DNA of 64,000 bases from Escherichia coli. Its GTDB lineage: Bacteria > Pseudomonadota > Gammaproteobacteria > Enterobacterales > Enterobacteriaceae. Under the pieces are notes generated by a model. That model saw only the letters and a program-made list of their open reading frames with translations, had not been told where the DNA came from and ran no database searches. Positions within the stretch are counted from its first letter, which is position 1. Each line of letters starts with the position of its first letter. Shown here piece after piece: positions 33,512 to 42,044 of the stretch. The stretch lies in the NCBI RefSeq assembly GCF_044324875.1, contig NZ_CP172187.1. The stretch is one strand, 5' to 3'. The position numbers and the translations under genes are program-made.

Positions 33512-33733
33512 GTGAGTGATGAAGCCGATGAAGCATATTCAGTGACAGAACAACTGACCATGACAGGAATAAACCTGATACGCCAGAAAATAAATGCTCA
33601 TGGTATTCCTGTTTATCTCTGTGAAGCATGCGGAAATCCTATTCCGGAAGCCCGGCGGAAAATATTTCCCGGTGTGACGTTGTGCGTTGAATGTCAGGCG
33701 TATCAGGAAAGGCAGAGGAAACACTATGCATAA
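33512..33733 (+). CDS. traR: TraR (DksA/TraR zinc-finger)
   Basis: 73 aa; CEACGNPIPEARRKIFPGVTLCVEC zinc finger. Confidence 0.85.
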   Translation: MSDEADEAYSVTEQLTMTGINLIRQKINAHGIPVYLCEACGNPIPEARRKIFPGVTLCVECQAYQERQRKHYA

Positions 33734-34199
33734 ATCAGAAGCTGAAAAAATAGATTCTATTCTGGATGAACATCAACAGATATATCGCAGACATAACCGA
33801 ATAGATAACATCCTGGCGTTTTGTGCGTGTATTGCATGGGTTCCCTGTATTATTGCTGCGTTCGGCGTTGATGGTATATATCTGAAAATACTGTTTGCGG
33901 TCCTTGCCTGCTGTGGTGCGGTATGCTTTTTTATTTTCTTCTTCACCCTCCTGCCGGAATCACTCATGGTCCTCAGCCGTCAGAGCCTGCTTCAGCTTAT
34001 GCGTCTGACTGAAGACGTACCGGATGCGAGACAGGAACTGCTTAACCGTCTGCTGTCCGGTAAAAAACTGACTGGTCGGGATGAACAGGATATCCGGCGT
34101 CTCTGGCAGGAGAAAGTGGATGCAATGCAGGAGTCTGCCACCCGTCAGCGTGAACAGGATACTATTCGGAAGTTTACTGAAGGGAATAAATCCGAATGA
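33726..34199 (+). CDS. hypothetical membrane protein (non-core, traR-traC interval)
   Basis: 157 aa; AGAGGA RBS; two hydrophobic segments. Confidence 0.55.
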   Translation: MHKSEAEKIDSILDEHQQIYRRHNRIDNILAFCACIAWVPCIIAAFGVDGIYLKILFAVLACCGAVCFFIFFFTLLPESLMVLSRQSLLQLMRLTEDVPDARQELLNRLLSGKKLTGRDEQDIRRLWQEKVDAMQESATRQREQDTIRKFTEGNKSE

Positions 34200-34247
34200 G
34201 AATCTGCAGTGTTTTATGACCTCATAAGTTAACTGAAGGGATATTCA

Positions 34248-34493
34248 GTGATTAATATACAAGCGGAGATAATAAAGAATGCATACCTTTATTTTTCTTG
34301 TGCTGATAAAAATATTAACGGTGGCGGAAGCTGGAATATTACACCCATGCCAAATACGGACGTATGCGTGCAGGTTCTTCGGACAATCGAGTCACACGGA
34401 GGCAGGGGATTTGGAAATACAGGGGAATGTATTGAAGTTAAAACAAATAAACCTTTGAACAACGTGATGGATACACTGAATGGGGGGCAATGA
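34248..34493 (+). CDS. hypothetical protein (81 aa, GTG start)
   Basis: ORF only; weak RBS. Confidence 0.35.
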   Translation: MINIQAEIIKNAYLYFSCADKNINGGGSWNITPMPNTDVCVQVLRTIESHGGRGFGNTGECIEVKTNKPLNNVMDTLNGGQ

Positions 34494-34520
34494 GTGCTTA
34501 CTGCTTCAAAGGAAAATGAA

Positions 34521-34883
34521 ATGAAGTCGATATATTTAGAATCTGTTCTGGCTTTTATATTTGTTGGCGTTATGGCTATGTTGATATGTGGTCTTTTTTA
34601 CAATGACTACCTTGAGCAACAACCTGCAACACCAGAACAACTGAGAGAGATTACACAGGATATCCCCTGTGCAGCAGAAGCATTTAAGGAAGCTATTAAG
34701 TCTGACACATCTGATTATCAGCCTGAACCTTTAAGTCTTGGTAAGGCAAAAGAGCTTGCATCAGCGTGTAGAGAAAGAAACGAAATGGCAGAGGTGAAAC
34801 GGGTAAGAGAAAATGAGCGCAATAAGATTCGCGAAAAACAAATTCAGGCATTAAATGATGCTCATTCAGTAAAGGAACGTTAA
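34521..34883 (+). CDS. hypothetical membrane-anchored protein (120 aa)
   Basis: ATG after AAGGAAAA RBS; N-terminal TM segment. Confidence 0.5.
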   Translation: MKSIYLESVLAFIFVGVMAMLICGLFYNDYLEQQPATPEQLREITQDIPCAAEAFKEAIKSDTSDYQPEPLSLGKAKELASACRERNEMAEVKRVRENERNKIREKQIQALNDAHSVKER

Positions 34884-35008
34884 TCCTGGTTTCCTGTTAA
34901 AAGCCTCCATCTCTTATTTGTGCTGTGGTTTCAGGAATGGCACTGCGTGATATATCCACGGCCACAGACTGATATTTTCCTTTTTTAAACGCACTAAGGA
35001 ATACGCAT

Positions 35009-37639
35009 ATGAGTAATAACCCACTTGAGGCCGTCACTCAGGCGGTTAACTCCCTCGTCACAGCACTGAAACTGCCTGACGAATCAGCAAAGGCCAATGA
35101 AGTGCTGGGCGAAATGAGCTTCCCGCAGTTCAGCCGTCTGCTGCCGTACCGTGATTACAACCAGGAATCCGGTCTGTTCATGAATGACACCACGATGGGC
35201 TTTATGCTGGAAGCCATTCCCATCAATGGGGCGAATAAGTCCATTGTGGAGGCACTCGATCACATGCTGCGCACCAAACTGCCGCGCGATATTCCGTTGT
35301 GTATCCATCTGATGTCCAGTCAGCTGGTTGGTGACAGGATTGAATACGGGCTGCGTGAGTTCTCCTGGTCAGGTGAACAGGCTGAACGGTTTAACGCCAT
35401 TACCCGGGCCTATTATATGAAAGCGGCAGCGACACAGTTTCCGCTGCCGGAGGGGATGAATCTGGCCCTGACCCTGCGCCATTACCGGGTGTTTATCTCG
35501 TACTGTTCTCCTTCGAAGAAAAAAAGCCGGGCCGACATTCTGGAAATGGAAAACCTGGTGAAAATCATCCGGGCGTCGTTACAGGGGGCCAGTATCACCA
35601 CACAGACGGTGGATGCACAGGCCTTTATCGATATTGTCGGGGAGATGATTAACCATAACCCGGACTCCCTGTACCCGAAAAGACGTCAGCTGGACCCGTA
35701 TTCTGATCTGAATTATCAGTGTGTGGAGGACAGTTTTGATCTGAAAGTCCGGGCTGATTACCTGACGCTGGGCCTGCGTGAGAACGGCAGGAACAGCACG
35801 GCCCGCATCCTGAATTTCCATCTGGCCCGTAACCCGGAAATCGCCTTCCTGTGGAACATGGCCGACAACTACAGCAACCTGCTGAACCCGGAACTGTCCA
35901 TCTCCTGTCCGTTCATCCTGACGCTGACTCTGGTGGTGGAAGACCAGGTGAAAACCCACAGCGAAGCCAACCTGAAGTACATGGACCTGGAGAAAAAGTC
36001 GAAGACCTCCTATGCCAAATGGTTTCCGTCCGTGGAGAAAGAGGCGAAGGAGTGGGGGGAACTGCGTCAGCGGCTGGGCTCCGGTCAGTCCTCCGTGGTG
36101 TCCTACTTCCTCAACATCACAGCATTCTGCAAGGACAATAATGAAACGGCGCTGAAAGTGGAGCAGGACATCCTGAACAGCTTTCGTAAAAACGGTTTTG
36201 AGCTGATTTCACCGCGCTTTAACCACATGCGCAATTTCCTGACCTGCCTGCCCTTTATGGCCGGGAAAGGGCTGTTTAAACAGCTGAAAGAGGCCGGAGT
36301 GGTTCAGCGCGCAGAGAGCTTTAATGTGGCCAACCTGATGCCGTTAGTGGCGGATAACCCCCTGACACCGGCAGGTCTGCTGGCACCCACCTACCGTAAC
36401 CAGCTGGCGTTTATCGATATTTTCTTCCGGGGGATGAATAACACCAATTACAACATGGCGGTCTGTGGCACCTCCGGGGCCGGTAAAACCGGGCTGATAC
36501 AGCCACTTATCCGCAGCGTGCTGGACTCCGGGGGCTTTGCCGTGGTGTTCGACATGGGGGATGGCTACAAGTCCCTGTGTGAGAACATGGGGGGCGTATA
36601 TCTGGACGGTGAAACCCTGCGCTTTAACCCGTTTGCGAACATCACCGATATTGACCAGTCAGCGGAGCGTGTCCGCGACCAGCTGTCGGTGATGGCCAGC
36701 CCCAACGGTAACCTGGATGAAGTGCATGAAGGTCTGCTGCTGCAGGCGGTCAGGGCATCATGGCTGGCCAAAGAGAACAGGGCTCGTATTGATGACGTGG
36801 TGGATTTCCTGAAAAACGCCAGTGACAGCGAGCAGTATGCCGGGTCACCGACTATCCGCAGCCGTCTGGACGAAATGATTGTGCTGCTTGACCAGTACAC
36901 TGCCAACGGCACTTACGGCCAGTATTTTAACTCTGATGAGCCGTCCCTGCGGGATGACGCAAAAATGGTGGTGCTGGAGCTGGGCGGACTGGAAGACCGT
37001 CCGTCACTGCTGGTTGCGGTGATGTTCTCCCTGATTATCTACATCGAGAACAGGATGTACCGCACGCCGCGTAACCTCAAGAAACTGAACGTTATTGATG
37101 AAGGCTGGCGTCTGCTGGACTTCAAAAATCACAAGGTCGGTGAATTTATTGAGAAAGGCTACCGTACGGCCCGCCGTCATACCGGTGCCTATATCACCAT
37201 CACACAGAACATCGTCGACTTTGACTCTGACAAGGCCTCCAGTGCTGCCCGCGCGGCATGGGGTAACTCCTCCTACAAAATTATCCTCAGACAGAGTGCG
37301 AAGGAGTTCGCGAAATACAACCAGCTGTATCCGGACCAGTTCCAGCCACTGCAGCGCGACATGATTGGTAAGTTTGGTGCGGCCAAAGACCAGTGGTTCA
37401 GTTCCTTCCTGCTGCAGGTGGAAAACCATTCCTCCTGGCACCGCCTGTTTGTGGACCCGTTAAGCCGCGCCATGTACAGCTCTGACGGCCCGGATTTTGA
37501 GTTTGTGCAGCAGAAACGTAAAGAGGGGCTGAGTATTCATGAGGCGGTGTGGCAGCTGGCGTGGAAGAAGTCAGGGCCGGAGATGGCTTCGCTGGAAGCC
37601 TGGCTGGAAGAACATGAGAAATACAGGAGTGTTGCATGA
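35009..37639 (+). CDS. traC: TraC (VirB4-like ATPase)
   Basis: 876 aa; Walker A GTSGAGKT. Confidence 0.9.
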   Translation: MSNNPLEAVTQAVNSLVTALKLPDESAKANEVLGEMSFPQFSRLLPYRDYNQESGLFMNDTTMGFMLEAIPINGANKSIVEALDHMLRTKLPRDIPLCIHLMSSQLVGDRIEYGLREFSWSGEQAERFNAITRAYYMKAAATQFPLPEGMNLALTLRHYRVFISYCSPSKKKSRADILEMENLVKIIRASLQGASITTQTVDAQAFIDIVGEMINHNPDSLYPKRRQLDPYSDLNYQCVEDSFDLKVRADYLTLGLRENGRNSTARILNFHLARNPEIAFLWNMADNYSNLLNPELSISCPFILTLTLVVEDQVKTHSEANLKYMDLEKKSKTSYAKWFPSVEKEAKEWGELRQRLGSGQSSVVSYFLNITAFCKDNNETALKVEQDILNSFRKNGFELISPRFNHMRNFLTCLPFMAGKGLFKQLKEAGVVQRAESFNVANLMPLVADNPLTPAGLLAPTYRNQLAFIDIFFRGMNNTNYNMAVCGTSGAGKTGLIQPLIRSVLDSGGFAVVFDMGDGYKSLCENMGGVYLDGETLRFNPFANITDIDQSAERVRDQLSVMASPNGNLDEVHEGLLLQAVRASWLAKENRARIDDVVDFLKNASDSEQYAGSPTIRSRLDEMIVLLDQYTANGTYGQYFNSDEPSLRDDAKMVVLELGGLEDRPSLLVAVMFSLIIYIENRMYRTPRNLKKLNVIDEGWRLLDFKNHKVGEFIEKGYRTARRHTGAYITITQNIVDFDSDKASSAARAAWGNSSYKIILRQSAKEFAKYNQLYPDQFQPLQRDMIGKFGAAKDQWFSSFLLQVENHSSWHRLFVDPLSRAMYSSDGPDFEFVQQKRKEGLSIHEAVWQLAWKKSGPEMASLEAWLEEHEKYRSVA

Positions 37640-39668: not shown

Positions 39669-39980
39669 ATGAAGGTGGGGGTAATAAGAAATAAGCACGC
39701 AGAGGACTTCAGAAAAATATGTCTTCTGTTTATCCGGTTAACGAGCAATGTATTAAAACTGTTTCCTTTTGCTATGGTGATGTGCTCTGTGGTGTGGTTT
39801 TATTTTTGCCCTGAACATATTCTCTCAGACATTGTTAACGACTGGCACGATGCAGATACACTGGAAAAAATACGGATTGTCAGACTGTATCTGAAGACGT
39901 CTTTTATTCTGACAGTGGTGGGCGTTGTTATTTCATATCTTTCTTCAGATAAGTTTATGCCCGTTAAGCGCAGGAAATGA
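39669..39980 (+). CDS. hypothetical small membrane protein (non-core, AT-rich)
   Basis: 103 aa; AGAGGA RBS; two hydrophobic segments. Confidence 0.5.
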   Translation: MKVGVIRNKHAEDFRKICLLFIRLTSNVLKLFPFAMVMCSVVWFYFCPEHILSDIVNDWHDADTLEKIRIVRLYLKTSFILTVVGVVISYLSSDKFMPVKRRK

Positions 39981-40042: not shown

Positions 40043-40564
40043 ATGGGATTTTTCTCGTTTTTACGAAAGATAAGTAATAAAGAAAAAGGGGTGGTTATCT
40101 ATGAGAAGCAGTGGTTCTCACTGCTGGAAAAGGTGAGTGCTTTTGATGAGGTCAGACAATGGGCTGAAAGTAATGGTGGAGCATATTATCCTCTGCTGGA
40201 GTGTCGTCGGCTTACAGACAGTGAAGATGTCAGGAAATCAGAGGATATACTGAACCGACTGGAGTTTATTGACAGAAGATTTCGGGAATTCATCAGCATT
40301 ATGTCTGAACATATTAATAATGATAAAACTAAATCCATGTGGGAGAGGGAATTGTCTGAATATCCACCGGAAAAAATATACCAGGTCCGGAGAGAGGGAG
40401 AACATCTGTCATTAAAAAATTACGGTGATGATATTACTCTGAACAGAGATACCGCCGTGGCTACGGTGCAGATTACTGTCAGCAGAAAATGCATTACTCA
40501 GGAAGAAATGGATGAATTATATGCATTGTCTGAGAGACTGAAAGAAAAGTGCGCCGGTAATTAA
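40043..40564 (+). CDS. hypothetical protein (173 aa, non-core, AT-rich)
   Basis: ATG after AAAGGTG; no family recognised. Confidence 0.5.
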   Translation: MGFFSFLRKISNKEKGVVIYEKQWFSLLEKVSAFDEVRQWAESNGGAYYPLLECRRLTDSEDVRKSEDILNRLEFIDRRFREFISIMSEHINNDKTKSMWERELSEYPPEKIYQVRREGEHLSLKNYGDDITLNRDTAVATVQITVSRKCITQEEMDELYALSERLKEKCAGN

Positions 40565-41276: not shown

Positions 41277-41597
41277 GTGTCCGCGATGAACGTGCATGGA
41301 TTTCGTACATATGCGTCCTGTCAGGGGCATGGCTTCCCTGTTACGAAACTGCCGCCTTATATCGCCTTTTCCTGTCCGGTAAAAATGGCTGCCCTTCTGG
41401 AGCAGCGACTGCGGCAGGATGCTGAATCAGCAATACCACGTCTGACATGGGGATGGTCGGTGAAGGGGACTTTTAACAGTGATTTTCAGCTTTGCTTCCG
41501 GCTTCAGCCTGAAAGCCCTCATCACTGGTATCACCGGTACTGTCGCCGCTCACTGCGTGCAGACTTCAGGACGCTGGTCCGCTTACTGAATCCGTAA
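41277..41597 (+). CDS. hypothetical protein (start uncertain)
   Basis: ORF only; no clear RBS. Confidence 0.35.
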   Translation: MSAMNVHGFRTYASCQGHGFPVTKLPPYIAFSCPVKMAALLEQRLRQDAESAIPRLTWGWSVKGTFNSDFQLCFRLQPESPHHWYHRYCRRSLRADFRTLVRLLNP

Positions 41598-41621
41598 ATC
41601 TGTTCCCGTAAGGAGGCATTG

Positions 41622-42044
41622 ATGGCGCTGACAAAGAAGCAGCGGGAAAAACTGCGTATGAAATTCGGCGGTCGTTGTGCGTACTGCGGCTGTGAACTGC
41701 CGGAAAAAGGCTGGCATGCCGACCATGTTCAGGCGGTGCTCCGCAAGTCAGAGCAGTGCATGAAGGCTGCAGAAAAGCGCATTTTCAGGCTGAAATCCAC
41801 CGGTGATGTTTTCAGACCGGAGGCCGACTGTCCGGAAAACCTCGTCCCGGCCTGTGCGCCGTGCAACCTGCTGAAAACAACATATTCGCTGGAGATGTTC
41901 AGAACGCAGGTGTCCCTGCAGGTTGAACGGGGGCGAAGAAGCAGCGTGAATTTCAGGACCGCAGAACGGTTCGGGCTGATTCAGGTGGTGAACAAACCAG
42001 TCGTGTTCTGGTTTGAGCAATATCAGAGGGAGAGTGAGGTATGA
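41622..42044 (+). CDS. HNH endonuclease-family protein, translationally coupled to traN
   Basis: CAYCGC...HADHV...CAPCN motifs; AGGAGG RBS; ATGA overlap with traN. Confidence 0.75.
   Translation: MALTKKQREKLRMKFGGRCAYCGCELPEKGWHADHVQAVLRKSEQCMKAAEKRIFRLKSTGDVFRPEADCPENLVPACAPCNLLKTTYSLEMFRTQVSLQVERGRRSSVNFRTAERFGLIQVVNKPVVFWFEQYQRESEV

Follow-up and report, generated by a model that had tools for sequence, protein, structure and literature searches.

The traR–traC interval of an Escherichia coli F-like plasmid corresponds to the optional yfiABC module of R100, with yfiB frameshifted

The three small genes that separate traR from traC in an Escherichia coli F-like plasmid correspond, judged by sequence and gene order, to yfiA, yfiB and yfiC, an accessory module of F-like plasmids of the R100 type that was long annotated and already known. 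The best explanation overall, which we regard as probable, is that they form an optional module dispensable for transfer; an adaptor role for YfiA within it is a possible but doubtful mechanism. The window, a 64,000-nt stretch of contig NZ_CP172187.1, carries three same-strand ORFs at 33726–34883, as the first-pass annotation had reported and as the ORF coordinates and a Pfam match for traR (PF01258) confirmed. The locus is laid out as follows:

33512–33733, + strand: traR, 73 aa, with a DksA/TraR zinc finger (Pfam PF01258, E=1.8e-13) and the label traR in twin plasmids
33726–34199, + strand: ORF1, yfiA, 157 aa, ATG start
34248–34493, + strand: ORF2 as listed, containing the yfiB body, 81 aa, GTG start
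34521–34883, + strand: ORF3, yfiC, 120 aa, ATG start
34884–35008, + strand: yfiC–traC spacer, of which only the last ~17 nt align with F (blastn)
35009–37639, + strand: traC, 876 aa, a VirB4-type ATPase and the downstream core gene

The TraR of the window is 96% identical to that of R100 (NR1, the IncFII reference), in which the ORFs between traR and traC have been named yfhA, yfiA, yfiB and yfiC (PMC5052281, PMC2762410). The assignment of the three ORFs follows from their having the same position, order and strand as in R100, and from identities of 97% over 157 aa for YfiA (against a 157-aa R100 ORF; DFAST label 'yfiA'), 85% over 67 aa for the body of yfiB, and 77.5% over 120 aa for YfiC (against a 115-aa R100 ORF). 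Compared with R100, the window has a single yfiA and lacks yfhA, which is a truncated yfiA duplicate; its yfiB is frameshifted, and its yfiC is a 120-aa allele with an in-frame 5-codon insertion. Since further plasmids are annotated with these three genes in the same arrangement (with an additional yfiA-like copy in those of R100 type) and the substitution patterns are of coding type (dN/dS, and the in-frame yfiC indel), yfiA, yfiB and yfiC are, on this comparative evidence, genes and not chance ORFs. The 120-aa YfiC, named 'YfiC protein' in UniRef, is found in identical form on 750 contigs.

Searches with ORF1–3 returned nothing that satisfied the curated cut-offs of Pfam, NCBIfam, PADLOC or PHROGs (sub-threshold noise only), zero matches at E<=1 to the PADLOC anti-phage defence models, and no match below E=0.3 in a profile search against PDB sequences; the searchable literature on yfiABC holds gene names only, with no functional data and no experiment. 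The claim that the ORFs have no recognisable family is thus correct for curated families, but they are the named R100 genes. The first-pass annotation had itself proposed conservation in standard reference tra operons as the finding that would count against it, and such conservation is indeed seen: the standard reference R100 has the interval, as do over 1,100 plasmid sequences. Its interpretation is partly supported, and the confirmed observation is real but ordinary; for the window itself there is little consequence, as it contains a known optional module with one gene broken, and nothing is unusual about the plasmid.

In PLSDB, approximately 1,170–1,210 plasmids carry the yfiABC cluster, versus 2,238 records with an F-type traR–traC junction, so that the cluster is kept in about a third of related plasmids and absent from approximately two thirds. 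No ORF is annotated in F (NC_002483) between the end of traR at 73581 and the start of traC at 73741, as had been stated. Translation of this 159-bp spacer yields MHKSVAEHSDLIPDEHEWIFRKQKSLYM, followed in another frame by GNGALITGIPFMATAF; the former is 71% identical to residues 1–28 of yfiA allele P0066, and the latter 67% identical to residues 29–46. On these alignments, the F spacer is a decayed, frameshifted remnant of yfiA codons 1–46, which makes the absence of the genes the derived state and F a deletion derivative. The genes are therefore an old part of this operon slot, lost by deletion in F and many of its relatives, and the implication that they were added relative to F does not hold. 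Textbook F carries a deletion here, so that studies of F could never have revealed the function of yfiABC. F transfers without these genes and approximately 2,240 PLSDB records share its junction; yfiABC is thus dispensable for DNA transfer itself. The same comparison bears out the description of the ORFs as non-core: absent from F and matched by no curated family model, they fail as core components of the MPF-F type IV secretion system.

The yfiABC genes, which lie between traR and traC, belong to the long tra transcript. The yfiA start lies within the last 8 nt of traR, giving an 8-nt overlap, and its Shine-Dalgarno sequence (GAGGA) is situated inside traR; in 8 of 8 F-type contexts examined, yfiA starts no more than 14 nt from the traR stop. 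The genes of the interval are all on the same strand with intergenic gaps of 27–125 nt, and yfiC has its own Shine-Dalgarno sequence (AAGGA) 7 nt upstream of its start; an alternative GTG at 34494 would extend ORF3 to 129 aa. At the downstream end, 34992–35008 includes the traC ribosome-binding site, and from there the blastn alignment of the F interval continues into traC. No promoter-like site was found on either strand of the interval and no terminator-like site on the + strand, the sole terminator-like site being a weak one on the − strand within yfiC (34833–34818), and an Rfam scan gave no match.

The first-pass annotation also reported lower G+C content than in the flanks, and this is the case: ORF1, ORF2 and ORF3 have values of 0.466, 0.407 and 0.391, compared with 0.544 for traC, 0.574 for traB and 0.52 for the window. 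Such a composition, below that of traB and traC, is what horizontally acquired cargo unrelated to conjugation might show. Equally low values occur elsewhere in the tra region, though (trbD and trbG 0.42, traR 0.45), so low G+C, common to other small tra genes, gives no sign of foreign origin. A repeat scan found neither flanking repeats nor element ends (its only matches were two direct repeats, both short and at chance level, plus a single imperfect inverted repeat within traR), and the ORF list contains no transposase or integrase gene. With yfiA also translationally linked to traR, a yfiA remnant retained in F, and every homolog found residing on a conjugative plasmid or integrative and conjugative element (ICE), an origin as cargo is already contradicted and its probability is minimal. 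TrbD, TrbG, TrbE, TrbA, TrbJ, TrbF, TraP and TraR are short, mostly membrane-associated proteins encoded on the same tra transcript and dispensable for transfer. YfiABC resembles them in all these respects and in low G+C, and differs in that no sequence similarity was detected and that they are present in F, where yfiABC is not.

While the frames of yfiA and yfiC are intact in the window, that of yfiB is not. The intact yfiB family consensus has 72 aa and begins MHTFIFLVL, and ORF2 aligns with it only from residue ~14. Two further features define the allele:

34279–34281, + strand: conserved yfiB ATG, which in the window opens a 59-aa out-of-frame ORF (34279–34458)
34308–34312, + strand: A5 run, the frameshift site, with a 1-nt deletion relative to A6 in R100, pF16EC0362-1 and p2018-09-2CC_2 (DNA alignment A3)

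The 1-nt deletion separates the conserved ATG from the yfiB body and thereby leaves the 81-aa, GTG-started ORF; a 3-nt deletion relative to R100 is also present. The first-pass annotation was right that an 81-aa ORF is present; as aligned, however, it is a frameshift allele of the 72-aa gene, with the yfiB body read from an upstream GTG, and not a normal product. The RefSeq twin pTB-nb3 has no CDS at yfiB and skips locus tag RS02395, which probably marks a pseudogene. For intact YfiB, the prediction is a small alpha/beta protein that is soluble and has no signal peptide. We considered MHTFIFLVL as a signal peptide or membrane anchor and rejected it: only 9 residues reach the hydropathy threshold, and the model places them as a beta-strand in a sheet.

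YfiC matches its earlier description as a 120-aa membrane-anchored protein with a charged tail. Its hydrophobic segment spans residues 1–31, with a predicted N-terminal membrane anchor at approximately 5–27, and its 120 residues include 17 K/R and 20 D/E. Alignment A5 shows two conserved cysteines (C50 and C83) in the middle part and a conserved Lys/Arg/Glu-rich, helix-type tail at the C-terminus.

Gene damage in the cluster raises the question of whether the ORFs are functionless leftovers heading for loss. This would agree with the absence of the cluster from approximately two thirds of related plasmids, with the frameshifts of yfiB here and in several other alleles, with the deletion that removed yfiC from pF16EC0362-1, with the truncation of yfhA in R100, and with the fairly high dN/dS of yfiC (0.45–0.75). 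Substitution patterns point the other way. Values of 0.13–0.23 at dS up to 1.2 for yfiB, including ~0.2 at dS 0.8–1.2 between E. coli and Klebsiella plasmids, indicate that the intact gene is clearly under purifying selection, and in variant P0122 a second indel restores its frame. The C-terminal part of yfiA has a dN/dS of 0.10–0.54 in most allele pairs (0.76 in one near-identical pair) and a motif that is invariant across IncF, IncI and IncX-like homologs, and frames and lengths are preserved across large divergence. We consider decay toward loss quite improbable.

YfiA was correctly described as a 157-aa membrane protein. Hydropathy, an AF2 model and alignments agree on a short N-terminal stretch in the cytoplasm, a hairpin of two membrane helices at about residues 25–82, and a conserved cytoplasmic helical domain. 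The hydrophobic region covers approximately residues 25–84 as two overlapping 19-residue-window segments, and the model (pLDDT 81) has helices at 2–47, 51–75, 85–97, 99–111 and 117–155, with a joining loop of ~3 residues and both termini predicted to face the same side of the membrane. Family alignments A1 and A4 reveal an invariant RLLSGKxLTGRDE motif in the C-terminal domain, and all invariant residues lie in cytoplasmic parts. Pairwise identities in A1 average 0.80 over the C-terminal core versus 0.44 over the hairpin (minimum 0.04), where hydrophobicity is nonetheless retained. Between allele classes, the hairpin has a dN/dS of ~1.0 at dS ~0.58 and the flanking parts ~0.2–0.5, with dS differing four-fold between regions of the gene. 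The alleles are mosaic and recombinant, and tandem arrays mix hairpin classes, as in yfhA and yfiA of R100 and in L029, whose two full-length copies are only 37.5% identical.

This variation could mean that YfiA is a specificity or immunity-type determinant whose variable hairpin recognises a diversifying inner-membrane partner, such as an incoming type IV secretion component (a second entry exclusion) or the entry machinery of pilus-specific phages, so that plasmids would gain from new or multiple yfiA alleles. The dN/dS of the hairpin relative to its flanks, identities down to 4% with length and hydrophobicity retained, mosaic alleles, pairs of different hairpin classes in tandem, and a family confined to conjugative elements whose systems are of the F, I and X types all fit. 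A dN/dS of 1 is equally expected for a loosely constrained anchor, however, and the four-fold regional difference in dS speaks for recombination and not for positive selection per se. The predicted periplasmic loop would offer little recognition surface beyond the bilayer, PADLOC gave no match, and about two thirds of relatives manage without yfiA. The plasmid also already has a gene at the traS position and traT after traG; in the twin plasmid, this exclusion slot between traG and traD is separately occupied by a 161-aa ORF and traT, and ORF1–3 have no family match. On balance we find a specificity role unlikely. TraS of F-like plasmids, another tra-operon product, is likewise small and highly polymorphic and resides in the inner membrane. 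It differs from YfiA in locus (after traG), shows no detected sequence similarity to it, and unlike TraS, YfiA has its variable part buried in the membrane with a conserved cytoplasmic domain attached.

Beyond F-type plasmids, YfiA belongs, as far as alignments can tell, to an uncurated family that includes YafA of IncI plasmids and genes of IncX-like VirB operons and ICEs, a modestly new point. It has the full family layout, in which a short N-terminus and a two-helix membrane hairpin precede a helical C-terminal domain bearing RLLSGKxLTGRDE, and the homologs found all come from conjugative plasmids or ICEs with F-, I- or X-type transfer systems. YafA of IncI/IncK plasmids is a full-length homolog (41% identity, E=1e-33) that shares the hairpin-plus-C-domain layout and the motif in the form LLNRLxSGKxxTGRDE, but its gene lies in the replication/maintenance region beside fopA/yafB and not after traR; FopA/YafB is a FinO-domain RNA-binding protein, and yafA is listed as of unknown function (PMC7491321). 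At IncX-like loci, yfiA homologs head VirB-type operons immediately before the SLT/VirB1 gene, with a NusG-like protein encoded upstream. The small protein between that NusG-like gene and the yfiA homolog was considered as a TraR and rejected, having no Pfam match and no Cys motif. A tblastn search of PLSDB with the IncX-like homolog P0320 gave only weak matches to F-like yfiA, which indicates that this plasmid type is absent from PLSDB. Across the three kinds of element, the adjacent or next-but-one upstream neighbour thus encodes TraR, a NusG-like protein or FopA/YafB, all from families that act on RNA polymerase or RNA; some homologs stand alone. With homologs in IncI and IncX-like plasmids as well, these genes are a reasonable place to look for an accessory role not yet recognised in how resistance plasmids spread. 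A broader proposal, that the YfiA/YafA genes of IncF, IncI/K and IncX-like plasmids and ICEs form an unrecognised family serving either hairpin specificity (phage entry or second exclusion) or the docking of regulators (TraR, NusG-like ActX, FopA) at the membrane, has in our estimate a low probability; if true, a gene family left unannotated in reference plasmids for 25 years would gain a function.

Within the favoured explanation of an optional module, we tentatively propose that YfiA is a membrane-tethered, cytoplasm-facing adaptor, a specific mechanism that is possible though doubtful. The hairpin would act chiefly as an anchor, which would explain its tolerance of almost any hydrophobic sequence and its free exchange by recombination. 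The cytoplasmic helices, which carry the RLLSGKxLTGRDE loop, would bind a partner that is itself cytoplasmic and conserved, most likely the co-translated TraR or another component used by the plasmid to manipulate host gene expression, and YfiA might thereby tune the regulatory or envelope-stress state of the donor while the transfer apparatus is produced. YfiB, as a soluble alpha/beta protein, and YfiC, as a membrane-anchored charged helix, would be further optional modulators. Features in keeping with an adaptor are the variable hairpin that keeps its hydrophobicity, the conserved cytoplasmic core, the same-side termini, the proximity to traR and the regulator neighbours elsewhere. Others are less so: synteny with traR may merely reflect descent, the intervening small protein of IncX-like loci is not a TraR and some homologs have no such neighbour, and the hairpin dN/dS of ~1, discrete allele classes and mixed tandem pairs fit a specificity role at least equally well. 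TraR function does not depend on YfiA, since TraR of F works without it (PMC2613031).

Alternatively, YfiA, YfiB and YfiC could play minor helper roles in the structure or assembly of the F-type secretion machine, comparable to those of the small non-essential Trb and TraP proteins, and improve pilus or channel assembly in some conditions. Their genes lie within the pilus-assembly block and are co-transcribed with it, two of the three products are membrane proteins, the conserved YfiC cysteines are compatible with a periplasmic disulfide-bonded domain, and YfiA homologs stand directly ahead of SLT/VirB1 genes at the heads of VirB-type operons. We consider a helper role rather unlikely: F-type plasmids without yfiABC are the majority and transfer well, yafA of IncI lies outside the transfer operon and other homologs stand alone, what is conserved in YfiA lies in the cytoplasm and is common to machines without sequence-homologous components, and YfiB is a predicted soluble protein lacking a signal peptide. 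In line with helpers of this kind, the same slot (traV/traR–traC) is taken up by different small membrane proteins in other F-like lineages. Plasmids of the pSLT type have a YfiA homolog (50% identity) plus an unrelated 87-aa multi-spanning protein, and those of the Klebsiella pKpQIL/pKPN3 type have a YfiB homolog (56% identity) and five other hypothetical proteins, with no traR and no yfiA. As in the window, the slot in both lineages thus encodes small, mostly membrane proteins, and the remaining ORFs are unrelated.

While the three small ORFs between traR and traC are real, they are already known as annotated, functionally uncharacterised genes and are nothing unusual in plasmids of this group. 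They occupy the positions reported by the first-pass annotation:

33726-34199, + strand, ORF1 (yfiA), 157 aa
34248-34493, + strand, ORF2 (yfiB), 81 aa, GTG start
34521-34883, + strand, ORF3 (yfiC), 120 aa

That annotation's description of the interval was accurate. The membrane character it assigned to ORF1 and ORF3, with a charged ORF3 tail, was seen in the hydrophobic stretches (residues 25-84 in ORF1, N-terminal in ORF3) and in the Lys/Arg/Glu-rich composition that follows in ORF3. The lower G+C it noted was likewise found (0.47, 0.41 and 0.39 versus 0.54-0.57 in traC and traB), although trbD, trbG and traR are equally low. As it had proposed, no ORF belongs to a recognisable family, with no match at curated thresholds in Pfam, NCBIfam, PADLOC or PHROGs, and in the classic F plasmid (NC_002483) traC does follow traR, 159 bp away. 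Plausible Shine-Dalgarno sequences precede all three ORFs. Because a promoter/terminator scan of the interval found no promoter-like site on either strand and a single, weak terminator-like site on the - strand, and an Rfam scan gave no match, we infer that the ORFs are transcribed as part of the long tra transcript. The traR coding sequence contains an imperfect 27-nt inverted repeat (33574-33600 / 33681-33707; 78% complementary, 80 nt apart).

The idea that the interval lies outside standard reference operons fails, since the IncFII reference plasmid R100 carries yfhA-yfiA-yfiB-yfiC in the same slot, as four ORFs of 137, 157, 72 and 115 aa; such conservation in a reference operon is what the first-pass annotation had itself named as refuting its reading. 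Identity to the R100 ORFs is 97% for ORF1 (157-aa ORF), 85% for ORF2 across its conserved body (72-aa ORF) and 77.5% for ORF3 (115-aa ORF). The published R100 backbone list includes 'tra, trb, yfiABC' and yfhA (PMC5052281), and YfhA is described as adjoining traR, with no similar ORF in F (PMC2762410). DFAST labels ORF1 'yfiA', and the exact 120-aa ORF3 sequence, named 'YfiC protein' in UniRef, occurs on 750 contigs. By megablast, the interval is present in thousands of F-like plasmids; one match covered at least 80% of the query in 1,168 records for traR-to-traC and in 1,213 for the ORF interval alone. To this we make small additions: a yfiA remnant showing F to be the deletion form, a yfiB frameshift in this plasmid, and a link from YfiA to IncI YafA and IncX-like operons.

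Substitution patterns bear on whether the ORFs are genes; functionless decay is an improbable reading. Between E. coli and Klebsiella plasmid alleles, yfiB has a dN/dS of 0.13-0.23 (dS up to 1.2); the C-terminal part of yfiA gives 0.10-0.54 in most allele pairs, a single almost identical pair, in which substitutions are very few, standing at 0.76; and yfiC, whose alleles are distinguished by a 5-codon in-frame indel, gives 0.45-0.75. ORF2 itself is a broken yfiB allele. The family consensus is 72 aa and opens with MHTFIFLVL; its ATG corresponds to window position 34279. In R100, pF16EC0362-1 and p2018-09-2CC_2 the gene contains a stretch of six A (A6); because the window has A5 instead (34308-34312), its ATG frame stops after 59 unrelated codons, and the conserved body is open solely by a chance upstream extension of its frame to the GTG. 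In pTB-nb3, the RefSeq twin plasmid (100% identical across the interval), no CDS is listed at yfiB and one locus tag is skipped, which we take to mean that yfiB was called a pseudogene.

Aligning 27 YfiA alleles from F-like plasmids revealed a conserved N-terminus (MHKSxAEKIDxILDEH) and a conserved C-terminal core (LSRQxLLxLMRLTEDxPDxRQELLNRLLSGKKLTGRDExDIRRLW), separated by a highly variable two-helix membrane hairpin. The alleles average 0.80 pairwise identity across the core but 0.44 across the hairpin (minimum 0.04), where hydrophobicity is nevertheless retained. Between allele classes the hairpin's dN is close to its dS (0.59 vs 0.58). As dS falls to just 0.14 in the C-terminal part when that pair of genes is compared, yfiA alleles are recombinant mosaics. 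R100 yfhA (2199-2612 of its locus) represents another yfiA allele, from a different hairpin class and truncated at residue ~129; it is a chimera in that its 3′ end encodes the last TraR residues (…TQRKHYA), which shows that unequal crossing-over between traR and yfiA produced the tandem. Two other plasmids (L009, L013) share this arrangement. A further F-like plasmid (L029 4528-5842) carries two full-length tandem yfiA paralogs (158 and 156 aa, 37.5% identical), after which a 124-aa multi-spanning membrane protein, resembling by eye, unaligned, the 87-aa ORF of pSLT, replaces yfiB/yfiC. Database proteins P0002 (222 aa) and P0003 (229 aa) join the TraR zinc-finger domain to a complete YfiA. Such read-through fusions of traR and yfiA reflect either genuine frameshift variants or errors in sequencing the 8-nt overlap.

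The slot is modular. In pSLT-type plasmids, yfiA is accompanied by an unrelated membrane protein of 87 aa. In a Klebsiella F-like plasmid (L006 2298-4469), six small ORFs lie between traV and traC, without traR or yfiA, and a yfiB homolog is the sole link to the E. coli cluster; the 96-aa and 134-aa ORFs there have a Cys-containing motif of 39 residues in common (49% identity). In some plasmids yfiA is the lone cluster gene, and in some others yfiC is missing. YfiC homologs were found only in Escherichia, Shigella and Salmonella; they conserve the membrane anchor, two cysteines (C50, C83) and, at the C-terminus, 35 charged-tail residues. The two cysteines may point to a disulfide-bonded domain in the periplasm.

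In F, the first ~40 nt past the traR stop align with the yfiA start. The spacer translates as MHKSVAEHSDLIPDEHEWIFRKQKSLYM and, past a frameshift, as GNGALITGIPFMATAF; compared with a natural yfiA allele, the first is 71% identical to residues 1-28 and the second 67% identical to residues 29-46, and the sequence beyond leads directly into the traC ribosome-binding site. The whole spacer (L003 1575-1741; 159 bp) consists of frameshifted yfiA codons 1-46 fused to that site, and a 34-codon ORF still overlaps the traR stop. This remnant, together with the finding of neither terminal repeats nor mobile-element genes in the interval, means that the yfiABC cluster is ancestral to the slot and that F lost ~1.2 kb; foreign cargo is a highly improbable reading. 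Since 2,238 PLSDB records have the F-type junction, it is more than a laboratory oddity, and as F transfers efficiently, yfiABC is dispensable for transfer, at least in laboratory conditions. A minor assembly role, similar to that of the small Trb proteins, is rather doubtful.

Searching 1.8 billion representatives with a profile returned only 99 YfiA relatives, many of them fragments, and no Pfam or NCBIfam model covers this YfiA/YafA family. Homologs were found in these contexts (L-numbers denote loci):

Divergent F-type operons, after traR: L015, L024, L026, L029
IncX-like VirB operons, between a NusG-like gene plus small ORF and an SLT/VirB1 gene: L016 (5179-7446), L022 (1894-3914), L021 (162-1054), L017
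Chromosomal ICE-like island: L023
Alone on a plasmid: L018, L019
Beside a FinO/ProQ-domain gene, colicin Ia and IncI/K plasmids: L027, L028, L030

The IncX-like operons begin with the NusG-like gene, a 74-88 aa ORF, the yfiA homolog, SLT/VirB1, VirB3 and VirB4; the small ORF was considered as a TraR and rejected. In the IncI/K (IncI-gamma/K1) plasmid pN581 (L030 2600-3767), the homolog is annotated yafA, adjoins the FinO-domain gene yafB/fopA and encodes a protein 41% identical to ORF1 over the full length (E=1e-33); yafA is stated to be of unknown function (PMC7491321). Within the motif RLLSGKxLTGRDE, L109, L110 and G112 (window numbering) are invariant across all homologs, and most other positions are at least 90% conserved.

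What is established extends to identity, operon membership, dispensability and protein architecture only. Our best guess, a tentative one, is that YfiA may be a membrane-tethered adaptor facing the cytoplasm, because its conservation sits in the cytoplasmic parts and its periplasmic loop is tiny, because each F-type example examined shows translational linkage of yfiA to traR, and because in three kinds of element a gene shortly upstream specifies a member of an RNA polymerase- or RNA-acting family (TraR, a NusG paralog or FopA). A rival reading, in which the variable hairpin has a specificity or immunity role, is unlikely in our estimate.

Elsewhere in the window, two further non-core ORFs of 103 and 173 aa (39669-39980 and 40043-40564), without a Pfam match, fill the traU-trbC gap, which in F is a few bases only; at this point the RefSeq twin has no annotated CDS, and its locus tags jump by two. 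The trbC-traN gap holds another non-core pair (41277-41597 and 41619-42044), made up of a hypothetical protein and a small protein that the twin plasmid's annotation calls an HNH endonuclease (Pfam HNH match under the cut-off, E=0.0018, 18.9 bits vs 21.4).
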